A stretch of DNA of 63,875 bases, counting the filler, from Nemertoderma westbladi (lineage: Eukaryota; Animalia; Xenacoelomorpha): the NCBI GenBank assembly GCA_032718475.1. It is 3 parts of 3 records of this genome, joined end to end, with 100 filler letters (N's around TTAATTAATTAA, not from the genome) between each part and the next. Parts side by side here need not be neighbours in the genome. Positions count along the whole stretch, not along the records: positions 42,322 to 63,875 come from JAUCBJ010006068.1; 2 more parts are not named here. One strand, 5' to 3'. The notes under the pieces are model-generated. The model saw only the letters and a program-made list of their open reading frames with translations. It ran no database searches and was not told the origin of the DNA. Position 1 is the first letter of the stretch, and each line of letters starts with the position of its first letter. This document shows positions 6,446-56,537 of this stretch, in pieces. The translations under genes and the position numbers were made by a program.

Positions 6446-6508
6446 GAATTTGACAGGACCCGTACGAGTCAGGTAAGTGAACCCTGACTACATGTCCAAT
6501 TCAGTGAT

Positions 6509-10205: not shown

Positions 10206-11027
10206 CTGTGTCTATTTTAATACCAAATAATAAAATTCACGGGAATAAATTTTAAATTTATATCCTCTCATGAATTTGATAAATTGACATTGTATACAAT
10301 TTATAAACATTCCCAAAATTCCATTAATTAATAGATCATGGGAGCGGAGATTCACCCTATTAAGTATATTAGTGTAAGAGAATCTCCAGTGTACAGTCAA
10401 TAGCCGATAAAATTCATAAAATCATGTATAAGGGGAATATTGACAATTAAAGAATCACTATTAAATAGCATCCCAGATCTGTATGCATGAGAATTACCCT
10501 AATTCTACCACTAGCTTTCCATAATGTCACCATAGTAACAACCATGCTAGAATTAGAAGCGAGTTAAAAGAACAATAGAAAGCTTGCCCCATTGAATAGC
10601 ATGCGGAATAAATAGCACCTTGCTAGTATCCAGGGATACATAATAATAACGTGGCATTCTGGAAGGCATTTGACTAACGGACAAATGGCCCTAATTTGTA
10701 CAAATTGTGACAGGAATGTGGAATTTGTGTATTTATAGGTGAATGTTACTACTAAAGTGTGTTTACAGTAGCGAGTCGCAGTTGTGAAAGTTACCCTGCC
10801 TCTGTAGCAAGTACCTCCAGTATATCTAAGCCCTTGGGACGGACAGTGGAGTGACTCGCGCTGGTTATTGTTGTCGTTGTGTAGCTACTACGTTGGCGAG
10901 AGGCACAGTGACGACAGTACATCAGCGCTGAGGATCTTGCGCTGTCCGGGGGCACTGAGGGGGAGGCAGCGACGACCGCTAGCCTGATTATTATTAACTC
11001 AAATATCAATAAACTCATATAGCAGCT

Positions 11028-12530: not shown

Positions 12531-12727
12531 TATCAACTTAAGATCTAGAGATCTTATCGCTGACACTCCTATGTTACAACGTCCGCCAATCGAGGCCGCT
12601 CGTGTCTACGGTATACTCGTTGAACCTCCGGACAATCGAGCAGATCTTGTCCGTCGTATGGTACACGAGGTCAACCTACGCGCTAGACCTTTACCAAACT
12701 CATTTTACGGGATCAAAGATTTTTACG

Positions 12728-12962
12728 GGTTAAACAATCTTACAATACCGCGGTCGGTTTGGTTAAACAATCTTACAATACCGCGGTCGGTTTGGTTAAA
12801 CAATCTTACAATACCGCGGTCGGTTTGGTTAAACAATCTTACAATACCGCGGTCGGTTTGGTTAAACAATCTTACAATACCACGGTCGGTTTGGTTAAAC
12901 AATCTTACAATACCGCGGTCGGTTTGGATAAACAATCTTACAATACCGCGGTCTGTTTGGTT
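12728..12962 (+). repeat. 33-bp tandem repeat x7 (GGTTAAACAATCTTACAATACCGCGGTCGGTTT)
   Basis: Head-to-tail, near-identical units without spacers. Confidence 0.97.
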
Positions 12963-14302
12963 ATCATACAAATTAGAACAATGGAGAAAACTCAAGATGT
13001 GTTCTAGAAGTTTATTGATTCTAAGTTATTGTAAAAGCTTTTGCGGACATAACTAGTCATTTTCACGCAATGCGCAGAATACTCTAAAATAGCCCTAAAA
13101 TTGTTCAACTACGCGTCGGAAAGAAGTTAGAACCAGGATGACGAAATCTGTCAGCTGATTCTCTGTGTATGTGGAGGTTTCTTTGTTCCGGCTTTTAGCC
13201 AATCAGAGCAATCTTCGCTGTCAGGTAAACTGAGACCTACCTGAGAAACTAGCGCAATGCATTATGGTTATTATTTTTCTGAGAATTAGATTCAGCTCAG
13301 AATTCTGTGCTTCTGTACAAAAGTTTCAGACTTTGGCCCAAGGAACATATGATGGCTTTAGTTATAAGACGTAAATCTAATAACCTGAATCACTGAATCA
13401 CCATTTCTCATTTCATCTCTGCATCATACTGGTCATATATTTTCATATGACTCTCATTTCACATCTATTCACCGCACTGTTTTACTTCTGATTAATATAG
13501 TATTAATTGTTGTTTATACTAATGGATGTTATATTTGGAGAATACCGATGAATAATCATAAACCCCTCAATCTTATTGATTACTGAGGTAAGAGGAAAAG
13601 AGTATACCGGTAGCAACTACGACTTAAATTATAGTGGTTTTGTGTGAATTAAATGCTATTTAATAATCCCTACGTGTGTCAGTTGCAATCCTCCTTATAT
13701 ATGATCAAATTCAGTGACGGTCGGCAAATTAGTGTGAAGTAGTGTAAAGTAGTGTGAAGTCGTGTGAAGTAGTGTGAAGGTTAATAAAGCATCTCCTAAA
13801 GAATGCGCTATTTACGAAACTCTGTGGCCATCTAGTTGTGATTAGTATAAGTCATAACTCTGTTTTTATACTTAAAGCGCCACGTCCTAAAGGAACTGTT
13901 AATATTTCCCTGAAAGTAAATATAGTTGTCAGAGATTATATAGTAGCGATCAATCGAATAATACAGTGTAGTCTACACTGCAATACTTCCTAAGGAACCC
14001 GAAGCCAGTCTCCCACACCGTGGGTCATACGCCGCGCACGGACTGGCTTCGGCAGATGTAACTTCAGTACACCAGGTAATTGGTAAGGGCTAAAGTCGAT
14101 TTATAAACAAAAGGACAATTAAAATTGGCAGGTTAAACTGCTAAAGGTCTGAAAGCGTGAACAGTTATTGATTACTTTACAGCGTTAGGAGGAGAGCGGC
14201 GATAAGTTGATATATAATGTAACAAAATATGTTTTAGTAAAGAAATACAAACCGGTATTAGTTAGTTAGTTAAACCTTAAAGTATAAGTGGAGCTGATTG
14301 AG

Positions 14303-23306: not shown

Positions 23307-26300
23307 TATTTATAAATACTTGAAATAAAGTAACATTATTCTTTCAGTATGATTGTACCGTGCGGAGATATCACGAGACCGCTGATAAGTCGTCATAATA
23401 ATATAACAAAATACATAATATGTTCTAGAATGGTTTGTATCCGATGGCAGAGGTACGATAATGAAAATGGTGTGAATGGGTGTCGCCTGAGTCCTGAGTG
23501 CCTTGTAAATAAATACCTTATACTGTATTACCTATACTGTAAGTAACTTGTAATAAATACCGTTGTTTATATTATCCTCCAAAAATTCCATCCCCCATTT
23601 TCTTTACTCTCCCCCAAACAAAACTCTTTTAGAATTGTTAACTTTCTCAGGGAGACAACACATTTATTGAACTGTTATTTGTTAATTTGTACGGTTATTT
23701 TGTACGAGTAACTATTATAACTAACTAACTAACTAACTAAGTAACTAAGTAACTAACGTAATAATAGTTACGAATAGTTTAACAGTTCATTAGATAGTTG
23801 TCTCCCCTAAATCCCGTAATAAATTCTATATCATAATTTCCGTACTAAAAGTGTTATTTATTTCTTACGCAAATTGTGTTATATTGTACGGAAATTTGTA
23901 GCATTCTTGAAATCGTCAAGTTGTATTAATTCTACAGTATAATATTAGCTACCGCATTGTTACATAAATTATACTAAGAAAGATTCCCTATGAACATTAT
24001 GAAATAGGCCTACAATCATTCTAGAAAATATAAGTTTCCCGTTTCATTTAGCGCAATGTAGGCTACTATACTACATCTTGTCCTGGAATATAGTGTCGTT
24101 ATTCTGGTACATGGACCCCCCCCCCCCAAAATTTTTCTACAAATCTTAATGAGATTGCATGAAATTTGAAACAGAGATAGTTTCACCTCCCTCCTCCTGA
24201 CTGGGTGAGCCAGAAATTTTATTTTCGCTTTCGTTGTTTAGCTACAAACGTTTAAAAAAAGTGTCTCCGTCGATATAGCGCCAGTTACAACGTAGTTATT
24301 CTTCAAACTTTAAAGCTGCTGCGGCCGCTCGCCGCTGCCGCTCGCCGCTGCCGCTCGCCGCTCCTGTGGTGTATCATGGCCTTTAGTGATTTTTTGGTAC
24401 TATTGGAAAGCTGAAGAAGCAAAGATTCCAAATATGTAATAACATTTGAATTTGGTTGGGAAATAGCTGAGATATGGGTATTCGAAATTTGCATGTATTT
24501 GCTTCCGCTGCAGGCCATTTATTCCTTTTAATAAATACACAATGTTCTAGAATATTTTGTTTATCTCATAAGTAGCTTGGCAATAATGAATGCAATGCCT
24601 AAATGGTAATACTAGTATATGGATATTCATACATAATCAAAATGTATTTATTTTCCCTTTTGATGGATTTCAATATTTTTGGTGTTATCACCATATTTTG
24701 CATCAACATTGATGGTTACTGGCAGCCTCTCGCGTTTTTCAGCAAACAACTAAGACCTCCAGAACAGAGGTATAGCGCATTTGACAGGGAACTATTGGCC
24801 CTATACTTAGGTATTCGACACTTTCGTTATTTTCTGGATGGCCGAGAGTTCACGGCCTTTACAGACCATAAGCCTCTAACTATGGCAATCTCCAAAGCTT
24901 CAGACCCCTGGTCTCCTCGACAACAGCGACACCTGGCCTATGTCTCCGAATTTACAACAACAATCAAACATATATCAGGGAAAGATAACCTGGTCGCAGA
25001 CGCACTTTCACGAACAGGGGTCAATGAACTTTCTCTGTCAGTTCAGTCTGGTTTAGACTATATATCCATGGCAGTTGACCAATGTACTGACCCTGATATT
25101 CAGGCTTATCGCACTGCAATCAGCAGTTTGGTATTACAGGATGTGCCGTTTGAGCCAGGGGGCAATACTATACTATGTGATGTCTCACTGGGCCACCCTC
25201 GTCCAGTGGTTCCAGAGCCTTGGCGTCGCCAGGTATTCGATGTTATACACGGATTGTCACACCCCTCTATACGAGCCACACGTAAACTTATAGCTGATCG
25301 TTTTGTTTGGCATGGTATCCATAAACAAGTTGTAGAATGGGCCAAGTCATGCATTCCCTGCCAAACTGCAAAGATACAGCGCCACATAAAGGCTCCTATA
25401 CAACCAATCGCCATCCCTGAGAGACGCTTTGATCGCATACACGTGGATCTCGTGGGGCCTTTACCAGTCTGTCAAGGTTACTCACACCTCCTTACCATTG
25501 TTGACAGAACTACTAGATGGCCCGAAGCCATTCCTCTGTCTGACACCTCAACACCAAGCTGTGCGAGGGCTTTAATACTCAACTGGATAGCCCGTTTTGG
25601 AATCCCCACTGACCTATCATCTGATAGAGGATCTCAGTTTACCTCGACACTGTGGGGTGAAGTGACAAAACTGTTAGGTGTACAACACCACAAGACCACC
25701 TCCTATCACCCACAGGCCAATGGCCTAGTAGAACGTTTCCACCGATCTCTAAAAGCATCACTAAAAGCCCGACTTAGTAGCCCCAATTGGTTAGATGAAC
25801 TGCCCTGGGCCCTCCTAGGTTATCGAACTGTACCAAAGGAAGACTTAGGCTGTTCCACGGCAGAACTCGTGTATGGATCGCCATTAACTGTCCCTGGGGA
25901 CTTCGTTCGCTCCTCTACAGCTCCGTCAGACCCACAGGCACGGTTGACAGAAGTGAGGGAACAGGTGAAGCATTTTCTCCCACCCCTAACTACTCAACAC
26001 AGTAACACTTCCGCCTACGTTCCTTCAAAACTCCATAACAGTAATTATGTGTTCATCCGTAGAGACTCACATCGAACACCCTTACAGTGACCGTACGAGG
26101 GTCCATTCAAAGTTATTTCAACTGGACCCAAAACGTTTACTGTAGATTTCAGCGGGAAGCCTCAAACCATCTCAATAGATCGATTGAAACCTGCCCATTT
26201 AGACTCTGATCACCCGGTTACGGTTTTTATACCACGTCGCAGGGGCCGCCCGCCTATGAAACATAAAATCGAACTTAGAGCGCCACCCAGCGCCAATATA

Positions 26301-38426: not shown

Positions 38427-39346
38427 TTACATCCATTTAGGTGCCTTAACGAAGGCAACTGAACAACTCCCAGCCATTGAACAAGGCGATCCCACTAATT
38501 CAATTACAACCAACACCTGTCTACCAGATTTGCTTAGTTGTAACGCAGACTTCGGTATAAATAAGGTTAACTGGGGGCCGACTGCTGACCAATACCGACC
38601 TAATACTTTGCCATTGAGAATTGCAATGCCTTTATTCCACCCACTCATGTCTAAGAAGGTATCTTCCATGTCACTTTCATTAATAAAGAACTCATTACGG
38701 TATATGAAGGGAGTGTTGGTTTCCAAATCATAACCTCGATGAATAGATTTCTCAAAAACCCATTTTGAGATGTATTTCAGAAATCCCTGAGAAGCAATTA
38801 TTTGATTAATATGGTTTTTGAATACAAGTGGCTCAAACCCAAGTCGATATATGTCCCAATTCTCTAAAGGTTTCCCATTTAATTCTGCACTTCCTATTCC
38901 CTTTCCTTCGTTTAATGCTTTACCATAACAGATCCGCCCCATGTTCTCAACTAGGATGTCTAGTCTAGTTAAACCGGCGGGTACAGAGATGTTGACTGGT
39001 TTATTCCTGTAGGAGAAACCGAACGATTGTTTATCAATAATGATGTAGGCAATATCCCTGAGGTTGTTGATAGTTAAAGTTTGTTTTTTGTTTATATTTG
39101 TGATATTGGTTCGGTACAGTAGGAATCCATAGTTGAGGTTGAGTTCTTCGAATGATCGCAGGTGTGAATTTCTAGCAGCACGACTGTGAGGCCACAGTAT
39201 ATTCAACATGTCAGTCAGTGAGCCAATTGGCAACAACTTTATAATTCCATAAGAATTCTTTTTAGTTGGAGGAGGAACTGGGATTGGTAATGGTGTATAT
39301 TTGGCTACTTCATTGCGGATCGCATAATATTTGGGTGTTGGATCAC
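38427..39346 (-). CDS. GLB1: Beta-galactosidase (GH35), last exon
   Basis: CAG acceptor then (G)DPTPKY, LDILVENMGRICYG, DTFLDMSGWNKG, LGRYWSAVGPQLTLFIP. Phase matches the previous exon. Confidence 0.92.
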
Positions 39347-39522
39347 CTGTGCGAAGGTAATGACAATTAAACAGCTATCTTGTTTCTTTATAAAAAAAAA
39401 ACTATTGCTACTAACTTTCAACTTGACCAATTATTGCATTTTTCTCGCATAATATAATACCTCACCCCGCAAAATTAGAAAAATATTTTTTCATAGTATT
39501 CTTGGTATCCAATACTAATAAT

Positions 39523-39909
39523 ACACGAAGTGGGGACTTCGCGCAGCACGAAGTTGGCAGAGCCTTAGCGAATTGACACTGTTAGGGGGTAGGTCAATTT
39601 ATGCAAATAGTCACGTTGGCCCTCTAGCGGCAGACTGGAGAACTGCAGATGGATTCGCCTCCTTTGAAAGTCACAGCTAATGGTCTAATACATATCTGCC
39701 AAGTTTCAGCTTAAACGGATTAAAAGCAAAGAAATGGGAGGGCATTTAATGTTTAGACATGTGGCCCTCTAGCGGGAGACCATTGCACTGATGGCGTCTG
39801 AAAGTCTCTCAAAAATCTCAACTTTTGCTCATATTGATACCTACAAATTTTCAACTTTGCAGCTTTAAATCCGACAAAGTTATTAGCATGTCAAAATCGT
39901 AACGACGAC

Positions 39910-39951
<42 letters not shown>

Positions 39952-40050
39952 AACGACGACGACGACGACGACAACTATTTGCATAAATTGACCCACCCCC
40001 TAACAGTGTCAATTCGCTAAGGCTCCGCCAACTTCGTGGCTCGCCCCACA
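39523..40050. mobile_element. Intronic Helentron/HINE-like element with subterminal inverted repeats and (GAC)n microsatellite
   Basis: 39548-39611 mirrors 39974-40038. Central GCCCTCTAGCGG repeats and (ACG)n at 39902-39972. Confidence 0.7.
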
Positions 40051-40988
40051 ATATTGATATTGTGCATAAAATGTCACGCAAAGCACCCAAACTAGCCTTT
40101 CAAAACTAGCTATGGAATTGTTCAAGCCAACCTATAATCTTTCAAATTAAATATCCCATTTCGAGAGATGCATAGGTGTAAATATGGGTAGCACTTCACT
40201 ATTGTTTTTAAACGTCACATCTCAAACTCCATTAATAATAGAAACAAATACTTAATGCGTTAGCGGTTATAGACAATGACACCGTATTTCTAATTTCACC
40301 CTATAAATGCTATTTTCATTGGTCAGATAGCTAAGCGAGGGTTGGCCATTTGGAAACGATCAGAAAATCATAATAAAGTTCCAACAGCACCTCATATTTA
40401 ATTATACTGTTTCCATGGCAATATTATTGTAAACAAATTTAAAGATCAAATATTTTGATAGTGTGGGCTTTTATCAAATTTATTTACCTACCAAATGTTA
40501 AGATGAATTGGAGTTGAAATGATAAAGCAACTACAATAGATTTCGTTCAAAAATGGAAAACACGAGGAAGCACGTCACGGTGTGTTGAATGAACCCTTGC
40601 TATGCGAGTTTCGGTCTATTACACCTCCTGTGTAGCGCGTTAAGCAGTTCACAATGACTCCGTACAATTATATCGAACATTAATCAGTAGGTGCATATCC
40701 TACACTATATCTAACAGCTGACCTATCGGCTTGATGTATCCAACAACAAACTCATCGAACAAAATCATAATTAAAAATAATATTATTAACAGAAACCATT
40801 GTCGTTAAGATTGACTGGGAGCGTGCAAAATTGTAAATGTATACCCTGGTATGATGGAAACAACGAATTATAAATTCTAGACATTTCAACATATCAATAT
40901 CAACAAACCCCAATAAGGATTCCACTGGTAGAGAGCAGAAATCCGGCCTGCGTTAGGAGTTTCATTTGGTATTTGGCTATTAACCAAC

Positions 40989-41271
40989 CTGCTTCATTCA
41001 GTGGTGCATCATAATCATATGAGGTTGTAACAGGTTGGTAATCGGTTCCAGAGATGTCTGCACCATTGCTCAGTTCGAAGTTGGTGCCTCCATGGAACAT
41101 ATATATGTTTACAGAAGCATTAATTTGGAGCATAGCAGCGAGGTTTCGCACTGTGTCTGCAATAGAGACTCTGGAGTGACCTCCATTACCCCAGTAATCA
41201 AACCATCCTGTATAATACTCGCTATTCACTAAGGGTCCATTTGGTTCGACCTCCCGCATATTAGCAAAAGC
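40989..41271 (-). CDS. GLB1: Beta-galactosidase exon with catalytic nucleophile
   Basis: [45 protein letters not shown] boundaries, 283 bp. Confidence 0.95.
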
Positions 41272-41560
41272 CTGGAACATTATAAAGTTCAAATCTTTGT
41301 CACAAGATAAATTTCAAGATTATTGAATATAATATAAAGATTGGTCTGAGTTGGAATAATCAAAGGATTAAATTAAATATAAATTGACAATTCTAGGCCT
41401 GTTTCTAGGAATGTTAGTTAGTAATATACACATGAATAGGATCAACCTTCATTTACAAACATAGTACAATAAAATGGAAGGAAATTTGTATTTGGCACCA
41501 TGTAACGTTGGATTCCAGTGCCGCAGTTTTCTATACAATAAAAATATATAGGAAATTAAC

Positions 41561-42320: not shown

Positions 42321-42513
42321 NATAGTAGGCCATGGCACTACCCTTATAATCACTACATACTGTACTGTAGTTTTACTTGTACATACGGAACCTGCTATGT
42401 TTGTTTATCTGAAAAAAAAAAGATGGGCATGGCTGTAAACATTACGCGGCGCAGACAGCAGCTGCAACTCCATTGGACATCCGTTAAAAACAGTAAGGGA
42501 AAGGATCAGGTTA

Positions 42514-43883
42514 TGTTCGCGGTATTTCAACTTTTCTTAACGCGAGTTGAATATTTTTTGGATTTATTTACAATGATTATTCCGATATCACTACTGGGTG
42601 CGGGAACATGGGTTTTGGGCACACTCGATGGACTGGGGGCGATTTCTGGGCGGATATTGGGGCGACTTACGGGGTACGGGACTCATTTCATGTATTTAAG
42701 GGCCAGGGGTGGGAGGCAAAGTTAAGCAGTATTCAGGTTTGCCTAATTACTATTAGGCCTAGCCAACTTCCTGCTGCCTATAGAGGTGGATTTGGTAACT
42801 CGCTAGGTCTAAAGGACAAGGACTGCCCTTACCGGTCCCTGGCCAACAGCAGTTATTACGAGCCTGAAAAGGACATCGGAAAGTCTGCTGCTTGTGTCAG
42901 GGATTTGCGACGGGAACTGACGACAGACCCCTAGCCAAGCTGTACTGGTCCCTGACCGATCCCTTCGGGGTTCGGGAAGGGTGGGACGGACACGCGAATG
43001 GGTCGACTGACTAATGGGGGAAGGGTTCAACGAGGACTGCCTTCCTGAAGTGGGTTCCACGACCGGCGTTAGTACGAGCCTGAATAAGGACTCGGAAAAC
43101 CACCAACCGTTGGGGCTCACGACGGGCTGACAGACCCCCTTGCCAAGCCGTACTGGTTCCTGACCGATCCCTTCGGGGTTTGGGAAGGGTGGGACGGACA
43201 CGCAACGGGGTGTAAAGACAAAGGACTGGACTCTACTGGCCTACCGACTGTTCGGAGCAGCTTCTCGGCTGCCGAAGCGACTACGAGCCTGAATAAGGAC
43301 TCCCCTGCGATGAACCGACGGACCCCTATCCAAGCCGTACTGGTTCCTGGTTCCTGATGACCGATCCCTTCGGGGTTTGGGAAGGGTGGTACGGACACGC
43401 AAACAGGTCCACCGACATGACAGACCCCTAGCCAAGCCGTACTGGTTAGTGATGATCGATCCCTTCGGGGTTTGGGAAGGGTGGGACGGACACGCAACAG
43501 GGTCGACCGACACCGACACTACGGTACCGAGACTAGGACCGGGGGAAAATTGGGGAACATTAGTTAGGCTAAAATCTGATCGAACAGTGGGTAATTAAAT
43601 AATGTACCGTAGGGATTTATATTGTCGTGTTATATTATTGTGAATATTTGGTGTATATTGGTTTGGGGAAGCCCAACTTATTCTCAATCAAGATTCAACT
43701 GTAGGGAAGTTACATTAAAGAGTATATCCAACCAATGAAACTTTTCTCAACTGCAATCTTGCATTTAAGAACGTATTCCTTCTCCACTACCAATATCCGG
43801 TGACTGGCCGGGATTCCGTGGTCTGAAAAGTTCCGCCTCCAGCATCGGCGTTTTCCCCCATGGTGTCGGGAATAACGGCAACA
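42514..43883 (+). repeat. 5' LTR (1370 bp)
   Basis: Direct repeat of 53867-55250, differing by scattered substitutions, a 7-bp duplication and a 21-bp deletion. Confidence 0.97.
43654..43719 (+). promoter_or_regulatory. Putative LTR TATA-like box, transcription start near 43677, and poly(A) signal
   Basis: TATATT at 43654 and ATTAAA at 43714-43719. The TSS is inferred from spacing only. Confidence 0.45.
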
Positions 43884-43885
43884 AA

Positions 43886-43897
43886 ATTGAGAATAAG
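43886..43897 (+). promoter_or_regulatory. Primer-binding site position, complementary to LTR 43677-43688 (candidate self-priming site)
   Basis: ATTGAGAATAAG lies 2 nt after the LTR and is the exact reverse complement of CTTATTCTCAAT. It does not start with TGG. Confidence 0.7.
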
Positions 43898-44090
43898 ATG
43901 CGGCCAACTTCGACTGGTGGAAGTTGGGAATCCTACAATACTCTTCAAATTCTCTCCGTGCTTACCCAGCACCAACTACAAGGAAACTCTGGTATTTGAG
44001 TTAAGACAAAGCTGTGGTTTAATCAATCGACAAACTCGATCTAATAAACTCGTAGTCGGCAGATCACATATAGAGAGTCGTTAACAGGGA

Positions 44091-44282
44091 ATGGAAGTAT
44101 CGATCACACCCATTGATATAATCCAAGTTGAGCCAGGAATCTGGCACGTCGAAGTTGAAGTACAAGGAACGAACGTCGGACGATTCAGGATTACCGTTCG
44201 GGTAGTCCAAGCTGAGTACGAGACCTACGAAGAACTGTTTTACAACATCGCATATCTAGCTATCAACGAGGCGCTAGAATGA
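44091..44282 (+). CDS. 63-aa upstream ORF overlapping the gag start (ATGA)
   Basis: Stop TGA 44280-44282 overlaps gag ATG 44279-44281. The sequence has a protein-like beta-strand then helix pattern. Confidence 0.55.
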   Translation: MEVSITPIDIIQVEPGIWHVEVEVQGTNVGRFRITVRVVQAEYETYEELFYNIAYLAINEALE

Positions 44283-47200
44283 CGACGAACAACGTCTCCG
44301 ATACCGATGAGATGGACCACCACACAGACTCGGAAGCCGACGAGGTACCGAACGTAAAGAACATGACCCGTCGACTAGGCGCTCTCAAGGGCGGAGTCAC
44401 TCGAGCGTATCAACATATAGAGAAACAACTCAAGGGAGTCGAAACCCCCCTCAACGAGATACAAACTCAGCTACAGAATATCCGAAGTATCTTACAACAA
44501 TATGAGAGGATGATACAGGCGTATCAAGAACTCATCCCCGCCACCGATCAAGTAAACTACCCTAGACTAGAAGAACACGTTGTACATCTAGATGAGTTCC
44601 GCAAACAACACCGGAGGACCCTCAGCCTCGTGAGAGGTTACGAGGAGCAGTACTATAAGAGAGCTGAAAGAACAGACGCAGAATCAGTGCGAACCTCCAG
44701 CACCAGAACAGCAATTCATCGAAAGAGAACGGGGTCCTCGAGGCACCAGCACTCCAGCGCTAGGAGCGAGATGTCCGGTTCAGCACGCAGCTCTCAAGGG
44801 GGTCAGCCACTCCGAGATCAGCTACGAGAACAGAGGGCATTGGCCCTCAAAGCTCGGATGGAAGATGAATATGTTCAACTGCGAGTCGAGCAAGATGTAT
44901 TAGCAGCCGAAATGCAAAAACGAGAGGCCAAACAACAGGCCGAACAACGTAGACGAGAGGCCGAACAACAGGCCGAACAACGTAGACGAGAGGCCGAATG
45001 ACAGGCCGAACAACGTGAACGAGAAGCGGAACAGGAGGCTGAACAACGTAAACGAGAGGCCGAACAGGAGGCCGAACAACGTAAACTGGAGGCAGAAATG
45101 CGTAAACAACATGCCAAGGTCCAAGCGATTCTCATCCATAAAAAGAATGCGGATATTGCGAAACTCGCGGAATACGAAGCCGAACTCATAGAACGTGATC
45201 TTCAACTATATGAGGACTGGGAAAGGGGTATAGAACAGAACTATGAACCAATCCCAGTCCCGGAATTAGAGAAGTCATTTACACCACCGGCGGCGAAACC
45301 TCCGAAGCCCGAGTTCCCGCCAACCATACAGTCTACGTTATCGGCCCAAGCACCGGTATTCCATCCCCCACCGGTTACGCTTAAGAATGAGGAACCTTAT
45401 TTCCCAGCCAACCCCACGGTCCCGAGCGTTCCCAAGTACGAGCCTGAAAAGGACTCGGAACGGGACGCCACCCCTCGATCCAACAACCCGTTTACATCCA
45501 CACCACAAATCCGTAACCGCATCATCATTAAAACCCCACCTCTCATCGATCCATCGTGCATGGGAGAGAGTGCCAATAACTATAACCCTCCTAGTCATTC
45601 CAGTTCAGATGACGTCGGCATTATCCGGGCATTGGAAAACCGCCTGGCCATGTCCAAGATGGAGATCCGCACCTTCGAAGGAGACCCCGTCGATTACCTC
45701 AGATTCAAGAAACGGTTCTTCGCTCAGATTGGGTCAACGGATATAGCCGACGCACAAAAACTGGTATATTTATCCCAATACCTTGGCGACAAACCACGCC
45801 GAATCATTGCATATTTTGAGGGAGGAGCTCATGAAGCATATTATGATGCATGGAAAACTCTAGACAAAAGATACAGAAATACCGGGACTATAATTAATAA
45901 AACTCTCGAGAAACTGATACAGGATGCGGGATCCCTAGGGGACCCACAGAATATCCAGGAGTTCTCGGATTCCATGAAAGATGCATACTACACTCTAAAG
46001 CCATTAAATAAGGAGGAACAAGTAAACAACATTCTAAACCTCCGACAGATTGCCCGAAAGTTCCCCGGATGGCTACAAAGTAAGTGGGCGTATAAATGCG
46101 TAGATCTCCGACGCAGACACCCAGATCGAGATCCCAGTTTCCTCGAAATGTCGGCATTCCTGGATGATATCTCCGAAGCCATGAATGACTCGATGTTCTC
46201 CAAACAAAGTCTCACCAAGTTAGATGGAATAGAAAACAACTCCAGGAGCAGGACACCCACTCAGAAACCGAGATTCCGTCCCCCTCCGGTGAGTACGATG
46301 GCTATCACCATGGACGAGGATTCCGACGACGAGGACTACGAGGAACCGACATCACCCGAGGAATGGGCGTGTTATCTTGCGAATTGGGCACCCGAAAGGG
46401 AAGGCACCACAAACTCCCTTCTCTGTCTCTTCTGCGGAGAGAAACATAAGGTGGAATTCTGCAGAAAGTTCCAGTTTGCCAAACTCGTCCCACGCTTCGA
46501 GGCGATAATGAAACACCGAGGATGCTTCCGGTGTCTTGGAACAGGTCACTATGTTCGGGATTGCGACCAAAGATCGTGCTGCGCGGTCTGTAATGACCTA
46601 CGTCATCACACACTCCTCCACATCCCCGCGAACTTTGACTTTACCACCCTCCCCTTTCGGATCGAAGCCAAACGAAGAGGAGAAACGAACCACGTCTCTA
46701 AAGGAACCCGGACGATTCAATGGAGGGAAACCAACCCGTTTAAGACCTTCACTGATGTATCACAAGTGACAAATATCTCGGCCACGATCAACCTTATAAA
46801 TTGCCGTTACATGGTCTTCGCCAAAGTAATCCCAGTAAGAATTCAAGGGGTCGGGAAATCATTGACAACGCTCGCGTTCCTTGATAACGGGTCGGACGGA
46901 ACCATCATCGACCGGGATTTCCTCGAACAACTCGGCCTAGACTACAAACCTTGCAAACGGCCCATACAAACTATCACCGAGCATAGAGAAGTAGAGTCCG
47001 GGGAGGTGCAGCTCCAGATGGAAGGAGTCATGAAGGGCTACGAGACGGTTAAGCTGACGATCAAGAATGCCTTGGTACACACCGATCTCCGAGTGCGGTT
47101 CCGACAATCAGCTGAATACGCCCCTCTCATACAGTTAGACCGGGAAGATGTAGACCTAAGGTGTCCACCGTTGGACGTGAACCACATCACCCTATTGATC

Positions 47201-50200
47201 GGACTCGACACACCGGAATTACACATACCCACAGGAGACGTCGCCCGATCTGTAAAGCAGGATGACGGCTTTTATGCCGAACGTACGATCATGGGATGGA
47301 CACTCTGCGGCATCAAGGAGGAGACTACAGACACCTATACATACCTCCCTAAATGTCAGATTAAAGAGAATGCAACCTCCGTGGGTTATTGTTCAGCTAC
47401 AGACCTGGACGAGGATTTATTCCTTGAGACCGAGAAAACCCAGCAGGAGATGACCAAATACTTTAATCTAGAGACCCAAGAGTTTGCTGAAAAGGACGAG
47501 AACCCGTCCGAGGAAGAACAATATTGTATTGATGTCCTTGATCAGGCCAAGTTCAAAGACGGACATTGGTGTTCACCCATGCTATGGAAAGACCCAGATA
47601 AACCGATGGCGAATAATGCCAACATGGCCCTTAGGCGGCTTAAAGGAATCCTACGCCTGTTGAATGAACAACCCGAGATAAAGGAGAAATATAATAATGT
47701 AATCAAAGGATATCTAGAAGATGGATTGGTGGAAATGGTACCCCGGAATGAACTGCAAGGGGGTAGACGGACATATTATCTCCCAACCCACTATGTGGTA
47801 GAAGCCCGGAAGGGCGGTAAAATCCGAGCAGTCAATGATGCTGCTGCTATGTATCAAGGCGAATCCCTGAACAGCCAACTTTATACAGGGCCCAACATAT
47901 ACAGTACATTTATCGGCGTGTTGATCAGGTTCAGGGAAAACCGGATAGCATTCACATGCGACATCAAAGCGATGTTTCACCAGGTCCGAACGCTACCAAG
48001 AGACTCAGACTGTCTGCGTATATTATGGACGGATAAAACATTAACTCCACAGGAGATCAGTCAACTCACATTGAAGGATGTGGATGTAATGCGCATGATC
48101 GTCAGGATCTTCGGCGCTAAGGACTCGCCAGTAGCATGTAGTGAGTGACATGCTGAAGAAAACAGCGACTATGTGCGAAAATGAGTTCCCTCCAACAGTC
48201 ATAGAAACCATCCGACGATGCTTCTACGTGGACGACGGATGCGCCAGTGCCGATAATGTTGACGAGGCATATCAGCTAGCGATGGGGATGGTGGAATGTT
48301 TAAAGAGAGGAGGTTTCCCTCTCGTGAAGTTCAGATCCCACGACAAAAAACTTATGGAAAAGTTTCCGGTGGAAATCCGACTGGACAACAATAAAATGTA
48401 TTCCGAGGATGTGGATCACCATGTACTCGGCATTGAAATGGGACATAGAATTGGATGAATTCATCTTCAAATATAACACCCTACCCAAGCCCATGACGAA
48501 AAGGGGATGTTTGTCTATAAAAAGTGCAATATTCGACCCACTAAACTTCATATCTCCGGTAACCTTGGCCGGAATGAATTTGATCAAGGAAATGTGGATA
48601 GAAGGACTGGGATGGGATGAAGAACTCCCCCCACACCTCAGTGTCAAATGGAGAAAGTGGACGGAACAACTCGAACATCTACATCTTATGCGGATCCCTC
48701 GACCGTTCTTCCTCGATAAACTACCCACCGATATTTTCCAGCTCCACACTTTCTCGGATGCTTCGAATACCGGAATCGGCGTAGTCACTTTCCTAAGAAG
48801 ACTAAGTCAAGATGGAAACGGCGACACGAGCTTCTTATTTTCTAAAGCTAAGACAGTATCCGGGGAATTCGTAGCAACGATTCCGAGACTTGAGCTACAG
48901 GCCGCAGTTTGGGCAGTGAGACAGAACCGCATGGTCATGCGGAACCTACGAATCCCCATCGAATCGCAACATTTCTGGGTCAATTCGAGTATCATTCTCT
49001 ACTACCTCCACTCACCATCACGGCGATACACCACGTTCGTAGCGAACCGAGCCATGGAGATAAAACAGTGCACCGGCCGAGAACAGTGGCACCATGTAAA
49101 TGGAAAAGAAAACCCAGCGGACTTATTGAGCAGAGGCACCACCCCACGACAACTCGGTAAAAGTAAACTCTGGCTCACCGGTCCGGAATTCCTACAGCAA
49201 CCACAATTAACCTGGAGTACCCGATTTGATCCCGAACTCGATAGCGGAAAATACTCCGAAGACGACAAGGAGATCCGCAAAGTCCATAGAAGCGCCACAG
49301 TGGAGATCTATAGTTGTCTGACCGAGCCTGCAAAGGACTCGGGCAGGCACTATAACGTCGCGACGATCACGCAACCAGCGGCGTCTTTACAACTATTGAA
49401 CGAGCGAACTTCATCAATGAGACGTCTCATCCACCACGTCATAACCCTTCGCAACTTCCTACGGTGGAAAGACAACAAACCGACAGTTCAACGAAGTATA
49501 CAAGAACTCATCATTGGGGAGAAATGTATTGTTAGATATGTCCAGAAAGTAAGTTTCCCCGACGAGTGGGAACAACTCAGTGCAGGCAAGACCTTGAAAC
49601 CGGACAGTCCAGTCTACCAATTGAGACCAATGATGGGAGAGGACGGACTGATTCGACTGAATACCCGGATGGCAAACGCCCCGGTTGAATACGAGGTCAA
49701 ATACCCAGCGCTTCTGCCCGGAACATCAACACTAGCCAAGCTATTAATCCAACAGTGTCACGAGGAAAACCATCACGCGGGACAGAACTGGATTATAGCT
49801 AATATACGGCAAAGATATTGGATCACCCACATCCAGCCACTGATCCGGAAAGTGTTAAAACATTGTTTTCCCTGCAGAAGATATCTAGCGCCACCACTCA
49901 CACAAAGGATGGCCGACTTACCAGCCACGAGACTGCAGTCCGATTCCCCGCCATTCTACGTAACCGGAGTAGACTGTTTCGGACCATTCACAGTCATCGA
50001 GCGACGATCCAACATCAAATGCTGGGGAGCCATCTTTACATGCCTTAGGTCTAGGGCAATCTACCTAGACATCGTGGTGAACCTTACACAACACGCATTT
50101 ATCAACGCCCTGCGTCGGTTCGTGGCGAACAATGGGACATGTCGTCATATGTACTCCGATAATGGTACAAACTTTGTGGGAGGAGAAAGAGAACTTAGAG

Positions 50201-50313
50201 AGGCGATCGAGGGATGGTTTACCGAGGACACCGCATCCCAAGTCTGGAGGGAACACCATATACAGTGGCACTTCCAAACACCCTTAGCACCCCATACGAG
50301 CGGGGTATGGGAG
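44279..50313 (+). pseudogene. BEL/Pao Gag-Pol polyprotein (one stop at 44999, two frameshifts near 48145 and 48430, integrase truncated)
   Basis: Gag FEGDPVDYLRF; knuckles CLFCGEKHKVEFC and CFRCLGTGHYVRDC; PR FLDNGSDGT; RT CDIKAMFHQV and FYVDDG; RH LHTFSDAS, TIPRLELQAA, ENPADLLSRG; IN GVDCFGP, SDNGTNFVG, SGVWE. Confidence 0.96.
44921..45095 (+). repeat. 33-bp coding tandem repeat in gag (EAEQQAEQRRR), ~5 units
   Basis: Read directly. Confidence 0.9.
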
Positions 50314-51166
50314 GTTTTATGTTTCTCAGTCGCGTTATTCTGGTGGGACCGTTGCGTGGATTTTGGGGCGTAGGCGGTGTAACTAGTCCAGCTATAGATC
50401 CCAGAATGTTGAGTAACCCCATCCCACATGACTTCGTCGACTGAGCTTTATGTTGCTGGGAGTGTTATTCTGGTGGGTCCCTGGTGCATTCCACGTGACT
50501 TCACTTCCAGCGTCTTCATTGTCCGTTACGTGTGCAGTTTGGGGCGTAGGCGGTGTAACTAGCCCAGCTGTAGATCCCAGATTGCCGCGTAACACCCCTT
50601 CAACAACGAAAATTTCCCAAAGAAGATGATTGAATGTAGTTGGAAATGATGAAAACAAACAGACAACCCTACTATAAACTGAATGATGACGCGTATGATG
50701 ATGAAAATGTAATGATGCGCACCCTGGTGCTGCGCTTATAACAATGATGAAAGCCGGGGGGCTATAACCCCAATATGATGAAGTGGAAATAAATGAAATG
50801 TGTAATAAATGGTGTAATAAATGATGAAATGGTGGAAATAAATGATGAAATGTGTTGAAATAAATGAAATGAAATGAGAAATAAATGAGAAATGAAAAAA
50901 GACAAAAAAATGTATAAAATGTAGAAAGAAAAGAATCGGAAAAAAGAAGAGGACATAAAAAGTCAAAACTGGTTGGATATTAATGTATAGCTATAGTAAC
51001 TGTAAATGCTGAATGTATTAGCAATAAGATGGTAGAAGCCTATATAGCAATGTTATTTAATAAACTGAACTACAAATAAACTGAATTATTCTGCAGTCAC
51101 TATAGTATCAGACTTTCTGGATTTATAATTAACTGATCTAAATTTTCAACGGACATAATTGAAAAT

Positions 51167-53684
51167 ATGGACCCAAATCGCCAAATTATCGGCAAATTAC
51201 GTAATACGATAGATTTACTGGAATATCCACAACCTGGATCCCCTAACTTTGATATAAATTGGAACGCCCTGATAAATGAGAATGTGCGAGTCGTCAAATT
51301 CTCCGGGCGAGAGGGACCGGATTCCCGGAATCTACGAGCCCTCCGGTTGTCTGATGCTAGTACGAGACTGAAAAGAACTCGGAATGTAAAGGCAACCGGA
51401 GAGGATGAGTTGTCGTACTGGGAAACGTTCCGGCAAAGCGTCTACAAATCCCGATGTTTGATATACGACAACGAGGGAAACGCGACGCCCACCTCGAAAG
51501 CGATTACGTTGGTGCGATGTCAAAGTTTCGTCGATGACAAGAGTACGTACCTCGCCCACTGGGGAAACCTAGCGGAGTGTACGGCAACGCTGCGAGAGGA
51601 ACGTATATCAGTTATCCAGAATCGCGACGACCACCAGGAGAAGTACGGGACGAAAGAATACGGTCGATCCTTGGTCGTCGTCCTCGGAACCCTGGATGGT
51701 TTGGTGTTGGTATGTCGAATATTTCCGACACCCAGACAGGAGGTGCGGACAGCCGGAGCGATCTGGCTACTACCACCCGAGATCCAAAAGATCCTATTCG
51801 ACTTCGACATAGGGCCGGATATAAAGGCGGACGTCCGAAACGACTACGCGAACGCTCCTTTCGGAAGAGACTGTCGAGAAGATCTCAACGCCATTAGTCA
51901 TTGTGTCGACACCCAAACTCTATTAGCCTGGTTACGATCCGCCGAATTCCTGCGAGGATTCCGAGAAGTGAGACAGACGAAATCCAGCATCGGCTACCTC
52001 GCAGTGCTAAACGGCGGCATAGACTTTAAACCCCAGAAATTCCAGGACTATAATAAGATATATGGTGGATACCCGGGATTAGAAATAAAAAGTGAGCGAG
52101 AGAGTCGCTGGAAGGACGTTGAAAGAAAGTGGACGATCCACCACAAGTGGGAGAATCCGGACCGACGGAACTACATCTACGTCATTATGGAATCCTACAC
52201 AGTCGCTAAGTTCATATGTAAAACTCTCGATAGTCTCATTACTGCGGTTCCTAGATCCTTTATCGACTACGGGTGGAACGAGGTCATCAACCACGCGTTC
52301 AAAGAGGTCGAGAATATTACACCTGGAGAGACGAAAACGCTCACCGTCATCGCTTCCTGGGACGAGAATGGGCCGTTCGACATCCCTACGATTACCGATC
52401 TCCTCGGTGCGGAGGAACCACTGATTTCCTCGGAATCGCGTACGAACCGGCCGCCAAACGGGTCGCCTCGGCCAAACCTGCGACAGAAGCAGGCGTTTCC
52501 ACCCCACTTGGCTCCGGTAGCCCCGCGAGGGAGTTAGTCACTACCTTTGCGTTGAACGACTTCGGCGGCATATGTCAGAGGTTATCCCCATATCCGTTCC
52601 CGGGTGGCGAAGACTGGTCGTCGGAGATTCCGAGTACCAGCACCCAACGGACCCGCTCAGCGATACTGGTTGAAAAGGGTCCCAGCGCTGCGCCGACTCC
52701 CGAAGATCTCCTCGGAATCCCTCCATCGAAAACCCCGGCACCTCTTCGCCGACCAGCGGTGGCAACTACCCCCTCCATTCCACAGGATCCTATGCGACTT
52801 ACCCGATGGTACGCCGAGCAGACCGAATGGATCCACCGCCAGAAACGGTCATCCGAGATGAGACTGGCAGGACATAAAGAAGGTTATCGAAACGAGAACA
52901 TACTACGCCAAAGCACCGCTTTTCGCGGGCTACCGCCCACAGCGGATATTCCAAAAAGCGACTGACGACTCGAGTATTACGTCGGCGTCCCGATTCTGAT
53001 ATTCTTCGGCCGGGAGATCCAGTTAGCGGAGACTGTGGTTCGGAGCAGTGCCCACGCGGTAGAAGAAATCGAGTAACCGATTCGTGCCTCCAGCTCCTCG
53101 GGATACTGTATTGTCCCTATTGCACGACATCGGGACATGATGTTTCAGTTTGTCCAACCCTCTATAACCTCTGCACAACATGCGGTTTCCGTGGACATTC
53201 CACTAGCCCCCGCTGCAATATAAAGTGTCCCACGAAGGACGTTACCGCTATGGGAAATATGGTTATGTTCGAAACCTACGCAAACAGCCACATAAAGACC
53301 AAAGTACGGAAAAACGCCCGGAATATCGCGCAAGAGATGGCGTGCGGGTATTTTTCGTTCCCGGAGCGCCTCCATACGACAGCGACGCTACCATTCCATT
53401 ACGTGGATCTGTTGCTAAGCGCAGGATTATTCGGCCCATTCGAGATCCTTAGACGCTTATATTCGTATAAGGAAGAGTTTGGTAACGGAAAGTGGTTCTT
53501 AGAGGCACACAACACTGAGTTAGAAAGACGAACCGATATGATCCCGCTACCATCGAAAGGAAGAGCCGCCAGGAGACAAGCCGAAACGTTGCTCACGATG
53601 GATGTTGACGCTCCCCTACCAGCACTAGCGATCGACGAGAGTCGACGGGCGAAGAGGAGAAAGGCGTATCAGAGCAAGAAATAG
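51167..53684 (+). pseudogene. ORF3: DEDDy/DnaQ-type 3'-5' exonuclease-like domain, basic linker and two CCHC zinc knuckles (disrupted after codon 456)
   Basis: LPPEIQKILFD..IGPDIKAD, VDTQTL, SSIGYLA..GIDFKP and KWENP...IY match the spacing of WRN/EXD-type exonuclease domains. CPYCTTSGHDVSVC (53112-53153) and CTTCGFRGHSTSPRC (53172-53216) lie in the open frame 52878-53684. Confidence 0.7.
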
Positions 53685-53857
53685 AGGACCAGGATATTCC
53701 AGGAACATTTATATCGAACATTTATTTTTTATATATTTACATAAACTAACTCTAGGCCAAATTAATCAAGACTATGCAATATTAAAAATTTTGGGTTTTT
53801 TATATGGGAAATGACCTACGCAAACTCGATCTACCGATAGACCTCACGAAGGTCATT

Positions 53858-53865
53858 GGGGGGGA
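53858..53865 (+). promoter_or_regulatory. Polypurine tract
   Basis: GGGGGGGA one base before the 3' LTR TG. Confidence 0.85.
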
Positions 53866-53866
53866 C

Positions 53867-55250
53867 TGTTCGCGGTATTTCAACTTTTCTTAACGCGAGT
53901 TGAATATTTTTTGGATTTATTTAAAATGATTATTCCGATATCACTACTGGGTGCGGGAACATGGGTTTTGGGCACACTCGATGGACTGGGGGCGATTTAT
54001 GGGCGAATATTGGGGCGACTTACGGGGTACGGGACTCATTTCATGTATTTAAGGGCCAGGGGTGGGAGGCAAAGTTAAGCAGTATTCAGGTTTGCCTGAT
54101 TACTATTAGGCCTAGCCAACTTCCTGCTGCCTGTAGAGGTGGATTTGGTAACTCGCTAGGTCTAAAGGACAAGGACTGCCCTTAGCAGTCCCTGGCCAAC
54201 AGCAGTTATTACGAGCCTGAAAAGGACATCGGAAAGTCTGCTGCTTGTGTCAGGGATTTGCGATGGGAACCGACGACAGACCCCTAGCCAAGCCGTACTG
54301 GTTCCTGACCGATCCCTTCGGGGTTCGGGAAGGGTGGGATGGACACGCGAATGGGTCGACCGACTAACGGAGGAAGGGTTCGACGAGGACTGCCTTCCTG
54401 AAGTGGGTTCCACGACCGGCGTTAGTACGAGCCTGAATAAGGACTCGGAAAACCACCAACCGTTGGGGCTCACGACGGGCTGACAGACCCCCTTGCCAAG
54501 CCGTACTGGTTCCTGACCAATCCCTTCGGGGTTCGGGAAGGGTGGGACGGACACGCAACGGGGTCGAAAGACAAAGGACTGGACTCTACTGGCCTACCGA
54601 CTGTTCGGAGCAGCTTCTCGGCTGCCGAAGCGACTACGAGCCTGAATAAGGACTCGGAAAGCCTAGGTGGTTGGGTCCCTGCGATGAACCGACGGACCCC
54701 TAGCCAAGCCGTACTGGTTCCTGATGACCGATCCCTTCGGGGTTCGGGAAGGGTGGTACGGACACGCAAACGGGTCCACCGACATGACAGACCCCTAGCC
54801 AAGCCGTACTGGTTCCTGATGACTGATCCCTTCGGGGTTCGGGAAGGGTGGGACGGACACGCAACAGGGTCGACCGACACCGACACTACGGTACCGAGAC
54901 TAGGACCGGGGGAAAATTGGGGAACATTAGTTAGGCTAAAATCTGAGCGAACGGTGGGTAATTAAATAATGTACCATAGGGATTTATATTGTCGTGTTAT
55001 ATTATTGTGAATATTTGGTGTATATTGGTTTGGGGAAGCCCAACTTATTCTCAATCAAGATTCAACCGTAGGGAAGTTACATTAAAGAGTATATCCAACC
55101 AATGAAACTTTTCTCAACCGCAATCTTGCATTTAAGAACGTATTCCTTCTCCACTACCAATATCCGGTGACTGGCCGGGATTCCGTGGTCTGAAAAGTTC
55201 CGCCTCCAGCATCGGCGTTTTCCCCCATGGTGTCGGGAATAACGGCAACA
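53867..55250 (+). repeat. 3' LTR (1384 bp)
   Basis: Direct repeat of the 5' LTR, followed by TSD GGTTA. Confidence 0.97.
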
Positions 55251-56537
55251 GGTTACAGTGGCGAGTTAATCTAACCAAAAACACTAAACGATGTTCAGGA
55301 GCGCCGGTTGTCTGCTGTCGGAGTAGCATTTACAACCGTCAACCGTGCCTTATATATAGGTGTATTATAGTATTAGGAAGTAAACAATAAAATATGACAG
55401 GGGGATCTTATTTCCTTCCCTTATATTAATTTCACACAATCCCCCTAAATTCGTGGTTGTCAAACATTATAGTATAGGATTTAGGAGGTGGTGGACAGGT
55501 TATAGTATTAATAATATTGTGTGGGAGTATATAGTAAATGTTTTGTGTGATTTTAGTAGGTAAGTCAATAATCCGATTGATGCACAGCTGGCATCTTTTA
55601 GTATTTTGTGCAATAGCCTTTCAAAAAGGAACTGTTAATACAGTGAATATTGGCCACCAATATTTTGATAAAAAATACTTAGTGATGAAAATGAACGAAT
55701 TTTACGTAATTAATGTTAAATTCAAAATGCGATCATTTATATTAGAACACCGATCTAAGACGCCCTTTTACATTTTTATTATACCAGTCACATCATACAT
55801 ACTGTATTTCTGCTGTGTATGATCTAGAGTCCCGAATAGACGGGATTAATTTTTGGAAAAAAATCCACCCACAAAAATTCCCTTATTCTAGACAGACTAT
55901 TAATTTTTTCTAAAACGTTTGTTCTCATAATAATTTAGAGTGAAAGAAAACAAAAACCGTGTACCGAGTATACCACCGGTCAGGGTTTCTTTTTTCAAAA
56001 TGTTCACTGTGAAAAGTTTCTAAACGGTTAGAGAAAAAATTTAGAAAATCTAAATTTTGTTTATGAAACCAAAATAATTTGCTCAATTGCGAATGAATTG
56101 AGAAAGTGAAAAGTGGGCCATACACATTGGTGCTGTTTATTATTACTGCTTGTTTTCTACTTTATTCAAACATACGATGGTACATTCTGTAATCATAAAT
56201 ATCATCGAAATATTAAAAAATTAGGCCTACTACTGTATTTATTTAATACAGCTTTGGTAAACGAAAGCCATTTATTGGGAATGAATACTCCAACTGATTG
56301 GTGATGGTCACAGTTGAAAGGGACAACGAAAAAAAACATTTTGGATAAAATATGCGTTCAGAGTTTTTGTTGTTGAAATTGAATTAAATGCTTATACAGT
56401 ATTATTCTTGTTACATAAAGAAATGGAGGGAAATTTGATTCAAATTATGATCACGATGCTAAATTAACTTTTCTACTTCAGTATCATGTATTCTGAAGGC
56501 AGATTATTCGCAATTATATCATCATACTGTCATAATT

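Follow-up and report, generated by a model that had tools for sequence, protein, structure and literature searches.

A long terminal repeat (LTR) retrotransposon in the genome of Nemertoderma westbladi (assembly GCA_032718475.1) raises the question of why one short sequence should recur in both of its LTRs and again within gag, pol, and an accessory open reading frame (ORF), ORF3. The window that we analyzed is a 63,875-nucleotide (nt) stretch that joins parts of three records, and the element that carries the sequence, a BEL/Pao retrotransposon at positions 42514 to 55250, lies in the part from JAUCBJ010006068.1. We conclude that the recurring sequence, motif A, is a functional RNA hairpin, with a probability of about 0.88. 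This is an analysis of sequence, and its scope is one family in one species.

Using a fuzzy search, we found nine hairpin cores of 19 to 20 nt, three in each LTR and one each in gag, pol, and ORF3, all on the plus strand (starts at 42859, 43075, 43284, 45439, 49323, 51363, 54212, 54428, and 54637), and no tenth in the rest of the 63.9-kb window. A pattern written for the core gave 6 matches, whereas 100 dinucleotide shuffles gave a mean of 0.00 and never a single match. A covariance model trained on six copies recovered the same nine, eight of them at 38.6 to 47.5 bits (six of which were the training copies), while the next match in the window scored 9.7 bits. In the 5' LTR, copy 1 (42835 to 42904, core 42859 to 42878) has a GAAA loop, ATTA/GAA flanks, and an extra A in the core; copy 2 (43050 to 43120, core 43075 to 43094) has a GAATA loop and AGTA/GAA flanks; and copy 3 (43264 to 43302) has lost its 3' side to a 21-nt deletion visible in the LTR-LTR alignment. 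This deleted copy scores 20.5 bits, compared to 46.6 bits for its counterpart in the 3' LTR, where the three copies lie at 54188 to 54257, 54403 to 54473, and 54617 to 54675, the last being intact with a GAATA loop and ACTA/GAA flanks. The gag copy (45426 to 45468, core 45439 to 45457, loop GAAA, AGTA/GAA flanks) falls within a proline-rich stretch upstream of DUF1759, and the pol copy (49315 to 49349, core 49323 to 49341, loop GCAA, no AGTA/GAA) falls in the linker between RNase H and integrase. The ORF3 copy (51343 to 51399, core 51363 to 51381, loop GAAA, AGTA/GAA flanks) is at residue 66, ahead of the region that matches the protein P0124, and has one C-G pair of the core swapped for A/A. 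All apex loops are thus GNRA or GNRNA (GAAUA, GAAA, and GCAA), with a closing U-A pair at six of six sites.

The original prediction, made from the sequence by eye, had placed the core, its GAAA, GCAA, or GAATA loops, and a basal stem at six sites, and all of these were present where it had put them. It was also right that three sites have AGTA...GAA flanks (these are LTR copy 2, gag, and ORF3) and two have ANTA...GAA (LTR copies 1 and 3), neither form occurring at pol, and that the third LTR copy is intact in the 3' LTR, the 5' LTR copy being short of 21 nt of 3' flank. It named no binding partner and pointed neither to the second hairpin of the LTR (hairpin B, below) nor to the nature of ORF3. 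An exact core at all three LTR sites holds for copies 2 and 3 but not for copy 1, where both LTRs have the extra A in the core's 3' strand. At this site, the 3' flank of LTR copy 1 is joined in run X3 (54230 to 54260) to a core of the gag type, which suggests that other family members have a regular core there. A possible seventh site at 53303 (AGTAC...GGAA) was rejected, having neither a basal stem nor a covariance-model match, and the loose AGTAC...GGAA pattern, taken by itself, shows no enrichment (9 occurrences, compared to a mean of 5.5). We found zero copies of motif A in the one other DUF1759-bearing element of the window (4997 to 13056; n = 1). An exact-pattern scan of viral contigs gave 8 loci, which all lacked a GAA flank and had no further copy even at 3 edits; we took these as chance, and a pattern scan of metagenome contigs gave 0 matches, so neither scan yielded a convincing copy outside the family.

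We then compared the pairing of each basal stem with that of shuffled flanks, with the core and 4+3 flanking bases held fixed and the rest shuffled 300 times. The P values for basal-stem energy were <0.004, 0.053, and 0.030 for 3' LTR copies 1, 2, and 3 and 0.093, 0.003, and <0.004 for the gag, pol, and ORF3 copies, respectively; taken singly, the stems are thus significant at LTR copies 1 and 3, pol, and ORF3 and weak at LTR copy 2 and gag. The Fisher combination of the six values is 6e-7, to be read knowing that the LTR copies have a common origin, even if their stem sequences are unrelated. The number of cross pairs alone gave P values of 0.05 to 0.27 in the same flank shuffles. Within the core, the four outer pairs form with a probability of 0.98 to 1.0 in the six regular intact copies, as do three of the four in the two copies with the extra A. 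The plus strand folds better than the minus strand in 7 of 8 intact copies, the exception being gag. The many G-U pairs had been taken as a sign of plus-strand RNA; each basal stem has one to five of them, and the gag copy folds no better on the plus strand than on the minus strand. In a sliding scan with fixed starts, windows below a z score of -3 numbered 9 of 334 on the plus strand, 2 of which overlap a motif copy, and 13 of 334 on the minus strand; strong structure is not confined to motif A, which therefore does not stand out by folding energy alone. Other strong local hairpins (z of -3.9 to -4.6 on the plus strand) occur at 45199 to 45274, 52609 to 52684, and 54091 to 54166, the last at the putative start of the R region of the LTR.

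The copies inside coding frames offer a separate measure of constraint. At the gag site, contigs of runs X1, X3, and X5 were aligned to 45375 to 45525, and differences were listed for 45407 to 45493; the P values that follow are guides, since sites are not independent and alignment favors similar sequence. With a 1% threshold, the 26-nt core with its AGTA/GAA flanks had 1 variable position, compared to 25 of 61 outside (P = 0.0002). Contigs of other copies inflate the depth over the core several-fold and so lift the 1% threshold, and for this reason we recounted with one absolute threshold. Within the same narrow limits, 1 of 26 positions varied, compared to 15 of 61 outside (P = 0.017), and at third codon positions the counts were 0 of 9 and 9 of 20 (P = 0.017). 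When the inner basal stem was included (45431 to 45468), they were 2 of 38 and 14 of 49 (P = 0.005), and in the synonymous-site check that had been called for, none of 12 third codon positions in this interval varied, compared to 9 of 17 beside it (P = 0.0024). In a single long X5 contig, 12 to 13% diverged, 1 of 38 motif positions differed, compared to 12 of 49 in the flank (P = 0.004), or 1 of 26 compared to 12 of 61 with the narrow limits (P = 0.051). The sole change in the gag core, 45450 A>G (Lys>Arg), turns the loop-closing U-A into U-G, and 45427 C>T turns a basal-stem C-G into U-G, so that the pair is kept; 45430 T>A, which is common in the family, leaves a base unpaired, and the AGTA/GAA flanks are invariant among family contigs.

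We also asked whether a peptide might account for the conserved core. It is read in one frame, with identical codons, in gag and pol and in another frame in ORF3, while the third frame contains a stop; with two reading frames used and the third closed, no peptide accounts for its conservation. A conserved peptide, EPxKDS, shared by gag and pol was rejected on the grounds that ORF3 uses a different frame and that silent sites are fixed. The pol copy encodes part of residues 321 to 340, the least conserved block of the pol alignment (1% identity and 84% gaps in the best 40 of 120 listed homologues). The claim that persistence within coding frames implies selection on RNA structure is partly supported, by the suppression of silent changes in gag (the one coding copy in which they were counted), the insertion-like placement in pol, the pairing of the flanks, and the better folding on the plus strand in 7 of 8 intact copies; two-sided covariation was not found.

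By domain content, domain order, and LTR ends, the host element is a member of BEL/Pao (Belpaoviridae). The LTRs (42514 to 43883 and 53867 to 55250, plus strand) were delimited by alignment to each other, are 95.6% identical over 1391 columns, and have the TG...CA ends expected of this group (TGTT...AACA); a short target-site duplication, GGTTA, was read directly at 42509 to 42513 and 55251 to 55255, and a purine tract lies just ahead of the 3' LTR (53858 to 53865). From Pfam matches and homologues, the gag-pol region (44279 to 50310, plus strand) encodes a BEL/Pao-type Gag with DUF1759 (E = 4e-13) and three Cys-His boxes, followed by aspartyl protease, reverse transcriptase, Peptidase_A17 (E = 5e-38)/RNase H, and integrase (Integrase_H2C2, E = 2e-8), in the BEL/Pao order. 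PF05380 is present in all of at least 120 pol homologues among the matches listed; the closest pol relatives listed are 37 to 41% identical, and the named ones are all animal. The family is abundant, with 10103, 12638, and 7158 contigs aligning to the element in runs X1 to X3 and 170 in X5. The gag-pol of the window copy is broken by a stop at 44999 to 45001, frame breaks at about 48140 to 48450, and unrelated DNA from about 50310. This repeat-like DNA (50310 to 51000), which splits the integrase frame, contains a 65-nt direct repeat (50356 and 50532) and an A-rich tract and has a high contig depth in run X5. In gag, a 33-nt tandem repeat (44873 to 45130) whose copy number varies among family contigs encodes a charged, coiled-coil-like stretch (EAEQQAEQRRR). 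By eye, no TGG-starting primer-binding site directly follows the 5' LTR (43884 to 43935), and a short hairpin, CCAACTTC/GAAGTTGG, lies in this interval about 20 nt downstream of the LTR end.

Within the LTR, motif A alternates with a second structure, hairpin B, in an array with a unit of about 208 nt and the order A-B-A-B-A-B-B. Each LTR has four copies of hairpin B, each about 80 nt long (42926 to 43504 and 54279 to 54871, plus strand), and a cUUCGg loop caps eight of eight. A GAU bulge precedes tandem GA/GA pairs in four of these eight copies, with the flanking helix intact in three; in 3' LTR copies 3 and 4, this 3-nt bulge resembles a kink-turn (k-turn), in which two helices are separated by an RNN bulge of 3 nt and then tandem G-A pairs (definition of PMC12510878). 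Among seven aligned copies of hairpin B, 7 cells have a one-sided change that keeps the pair, and in 4 the pair is broken. No Rfam family matched hairpin B. The hammerhead core is CUGANGA...GAAA with an NUH site and a three-way junction; we rejected a hammerhead reading of hairpin B, which has no Rfam match, CUGAUGA in only 3 of 8 copies, no GAAA, and a fold that is one long hairpin.

The position of the array within the LTR bears on which transcripts contain it. A pattern scan of the LTR found a single TATA-like word, TATTTAA (42693 to 42699, plus strand), which lies upstream of the array and is a putative promoter. Downstream of the array, ATTAAA followed by a G/T-rich stretch (43594 to 43673, plus strand) is a putative poly(A) signal, with U5 putatively starting there. 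This layout matches the description of promoter before and poly(A) signal after in the part of PMC3601003 consulted, which gives R a length of 11 to 150 nt; placing the array in R would make R about 890 nt, far above that range, and a second ATTAAA at 43714 permits a U3 reading. The assignment of the LTR copies to U3 is thus doubtful, and we consider R the somewhat likelier location. Under either placement, the 3' LTR copies of motif A are transcribed. A bacterial promoter scan and a tRNA scan gave nothing informative.

Motif A resembles several known RNAs in part. An Rfam covariance scan gave no match to it, the sole match (E = 2.8) being elsewhere and below its cut-off. As in the sarcin-ricin, bulged-G, or loop E motif, its base at three of six sites has AGUA opposite GAA, closed by C-G, and is identical to the first 8 nt of the Escherichia coli sarcin-ricin loop, which starts with AGUACGAG; unlike that loop, it has a 7-bp helix, a bulged A, and a GNRA-type loop in place of the GAGA tetraloop. 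The loop E reading made at the outset agrees with the sequence at three of six sites, and the exact base is missing at the other three. The full motif also has noncanonical pairs, an S-turn, and a base triple in three dimensions, so that the base of motif A is a candidate loop E by its sequence. The apex is like that of lambda boxB in its CCU-loop-AGG form, closing U-A, and GNRNA or GNRA loop, and differs in having 3 pairs and then a bulged A, where boxB has an uninterrupted 5-bp stem, and in its eukaryotic host. The boxB loop is a GNRNA loop bound by protein (PMC12027372, from whose consulted part the loop and closing-pair criteria were taken), and a boxB-like GNRNA/GNRA loop would explain the alternation of GAAA and GAAUA, although the likeness is short and most likely convergent.

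Other parallels concern arrangement. The Rev, Rex, and Rem response elements (RRE, RexRE, and RmRE) and the CERV system of the Caenorhabditis elegans element Cer1 are like motif A in combining structured cis RNA, partly in the LTR, with an accessory gene 3' of pol whose product could bind it (passages of PMC12789967 and PMC10309623), and RexRE and RmRE, which are within the 3' LTR or overlap it, occur in spliced and unspliced RNA alike (PMC12789967). RRE, RexRE, and RmRE are single large retroviral elements, whereas motif A is a 26-nt module at six sites, three of them coding, in a BEL/Pao element. For CERV, the consulted passages of PMC10309623 name no RNA element ("response element" and "stem-loop" occur 0 times). 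The constitutive transport element (CTE) of Mason-Pfizer monkey virus is also a structured RNA by the 3' LTR, in all transcripts and stronger in multiple copies (PMC12789967 and PMC4829213, in part), but motif A is much shorter, has no Rfam match, and also occurs in gag, pol, and ORF3. The packaging signals described by Twarock and Stockley for single-stranded RNA viruses consist of numerous stem-loops, spread over the genome, that have a recognition motif in common (PMC6281560, in part); motif A differs as a set of few, near-identical, long copies, where those signals are degenerate, and in belonging to an LTR retroelement. The bdelloid LTR elements Juno and Vesta likewise have a third ORF, RNase D-like (DEDDy), some with a Cys-His motif, and the passages on them mention no hairpin (0 occurrences; PMC5408684). 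Catalytic residues are intact in those ORF3s, as far as these passages describe them, whereas in our BEL/Pao element a far diverged domain leaves the first acidic motif of the window copy unaligned.

The accessory ORF3 region of our element (51167 to 53684, plus strand) consists of three successive frames, 51167 to 52537, 52255 to 52965, and 52878 to 53684. A profile-free protein search with the last frame gave 5 proteins at E <= 0.001, one of them spurious, and P0123 was dropped from the ORF3 alignments as a low-complexity false match. The first frame gave no homologue by word search; P0124, however, also matches it pairwise (27% over 264 residues, E = 2e-10), with an E value of 7e-14 for the knuckle part. 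Since both outer frames match this single protein, the ORF3 frames are likely one gene that is broken in the window copy. Together with P0121, P0122, P0124, P0125, and P0130, ORF3 forms a small protein family without a Pfam name. It has two CCHC-type Cys-His knuckles, CX2CX4HX4C and CX2CX4HX5C, and when the family profile was compared to the Protein Data Bank, Lin28 and nucleocapsid knuckles were the best, weak matches (E of 0.04 to 0.4). The N-terminal domain (ORF3, P0124, and P0130) has 104 collinear columns with the E. coli RNase D/PolA exonuclease in a weak HHalign match, and a far diverged, RNase D-like identity for it is weakly supported. DEDDy exonucleases have four acidic catalytic residues and a Tyr; the D-x-E stretch of P0124 aligns to a gap in the window ORF3, whose exonuclease-like domain may be dead or may reflect a lesion of this copy. 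Atlas matches for both ORF3 frames were below 0.9 and serve as leads only. One acceptor-like word lies ahead of ORF3 at 51089 to 51096, no splice donor was found in the leader, and an arginine-rich partner like the N protein of lambda boxB was not found in the element, whose best arginine-rich 12-mer has 5 Arg.

An invariant core on interchangeable stems has the likely look of a protein-binding site, and our tentative choice of partner, held at less than even odds, is the ORF3 protein, in the manner of the Rev, Rex, and CERV response elements. ORF3 was chosen as an unusual feature of the element with RNA-binding-type knuckles, a motif copy in its own 5' coding region, and precedents in CERV and RexRE/RmRE. 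In such a system, the hairpin as folded in vivo would have a GNRA-type apex and a bulged A, with a bulged-G (loop E) base in most copies, and the basal stems would be sequence-free scaffolds presenting the invariant core. ORF3 would be made from a spliced mRNA, using the acceptor-like word at 51089 to 51096, and its protein would bind the copies, at about 1 to 5%, 22%, 54%, 70%, and 94 to 97% of the transcript, and coat the genomic RNA along its length, thereby licensing its nuclear export or protecting it. The complete version of this proposal, in which a BEL/Pao lineage has evolved its own Rev-like system from an exonuclease-fold, zinc-knuckle protein and an rRNA-mimicking hairpin (a boxB-like apex above a sarcin-ricin-like base) placed in LTRs and in the interdomain linkers of gag, pol, and ORF3, with the RNA coated end to end and feedback on the protein's own mRNA, is less likely than not.

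Several observations weigh against the hairpin or against ORF3 as its partner. The covariation check on the core found that 0 of 7 pairs change on both sides among the six copies compared, as the core hardly varies, and hairpin B gave 0 of 24 pairs among its seven aligned copies. The gag copy folds equally well on the minus strand, and the constraint test covered one of three coding copies, that in gag. The loop E base is exact at three of six sites, is ANUA at two, and is absent from the pol copy. The RNase D/PolA HHalign score of 21.8 exceeds those of 120 of 120 column shuffles, yet its probability is 2%; the ORF3 N-terminal domain has no Pfam (E <= 10) or NCBIfam match, and single-sequence folds of ORF3 and P0124 have predicted confidence (pLDDT) values of 30 and 33. 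CCHC knuckles usually read single-stranded, G-rich RNA rather than mostly paired hairpins, and Gag itself contains three Cys-His boxes.

Those boxes would make an extra gene unnecessary if the copies were dispersed packaging or assembly signals that the nucleocapsid domain of Gag binds to compact the 12-kb genomic RNA, as happens in RNA viruses whose assembly is mediated by packaging signals. Retroviral packaging signals normally form one cluster in the 5' leader, and the Psi signal is confined to unspliced RNA; here, no copy lies in the leader (43884 to 44278), and copies occur in the LTR and ORF3. If the array is in R, a spliced ORF3 mRNA would likewise contain 7 of 9 copies, those of the LTRs and of ORF3, so that genomic RNA would not be singled out. 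The spread of copies over the whole genome suits packaging, and multiple dispersed motifs with shared recognition are a described principle (PMC6281560, in part); we hold this explanation to be unlikely, though not far behind ORF3. Much the same standing falls to recruitment of a host RNA-binding protein, either for NXF1/CTE-like export or as a reader of rRNA-like loop E/GNRA structure, with copy number tuning export, stability, or translation and the k-turn-like hairpin B as a second host-factor site. A near-invariant core suits a partner unable to coevolve, the base equals the sarcin-ricin loop over 8 nt, and CTEs, which every viral mRNA has at its 3' end, bind host NXF1 and work better when several are present (PMC12789967 and PMC4829213, in part). 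Against this, no Rfam family was found at E <= 5, the loop E base is exact at three of six sites and missing at pol, and the k-turn-like bulge is in 4 of 8 hairpin B copies.

Explanations that dispense with a dedicated RNA-binding protein fare worse. Tandem LTR repeats are typical of U3 enhancers, and the core could be a DNA element, an imperfect palindrome for a dimeric transcription or chromatin factor that acts as an LTR enhancer and was seeded internally. Suppression of silent changes would be equally expected of such an element, the core does not covary, and the U3/R border is unproven, but the copies keep one orientation throughout (a chance of 1 in 8 for about four independent origins), their unrelated flanks pair, the changes tolerated within pairs form U-G wobbles when read on the plus strand, and cUUCGg caps eight of eight hairpin B copies, all of which makes a DNA role improbable. 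RNA-RNA tertiary contacts by the GNRA-type loops, for example into hairpin B, could fold or dimerize the genome without any dedicated protein, and every loop is GNRA or GNRNA, with A and B alternating in the LTR. Such docking would not require an invariant stem sequence, however, the internal copies have no B neighbor, and hairpin B has no evident conserved internal loop like the receptor consensus, its lower loop differing between units; we regard this role as quite improbable. It is highly improbable that template switching or conversion inside the element left the copies as neutral by-products. The LTR copies clearly arose by tandem duplication of the unit of about 208 nt, but flanks have diverged beyond recognition where the core has not, silent sites are suppressed, and flanks pair, and at the gag copy the neutral explanation is largely refuted.

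Three other features of the window were recorded. A second, decayed LTR-type element with DUF1759 (4997 to 13056) precedes additional frames, of 410 and 203 residues, neither with a Pfam match, and a fragment of another LTR element (24603 to 26090) has RNase H and integrase in a non-BEL Pfam order typical of gypsy-type elements. Just upstream of the insertion in window coordinates, the minus strand at 38427 to 41313 contains parts of a beta-galactosidase gene of the host, recognized by its Pfam BetaGal domains.

In a full-text literature search that covered main texts and few subscription journals, we found no description of motif A, of a dispersed hairpin in a BEL/Pao element, or of a defined cis-acting RNA structure for any such element. 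Motif A is real and constrained, and it is likely a so far undescribed cis-acting RNA signal of an LTR element. It shows clearly how a single RNA module can come to sit in several protein linkers, and an easily synthesized 26-nt RNA with two candidate zinc-knuckle partners in one element makes genomic RNA selection or export directly testable. The role of exonuclease-type third ORFs was left open in the passages of the paper describing them (PMC5408684). If ORF3 does bind motif A, this would be the first RNA target, and hence function, for the exonuclease-type ORF3s of LTR retrotransposons.

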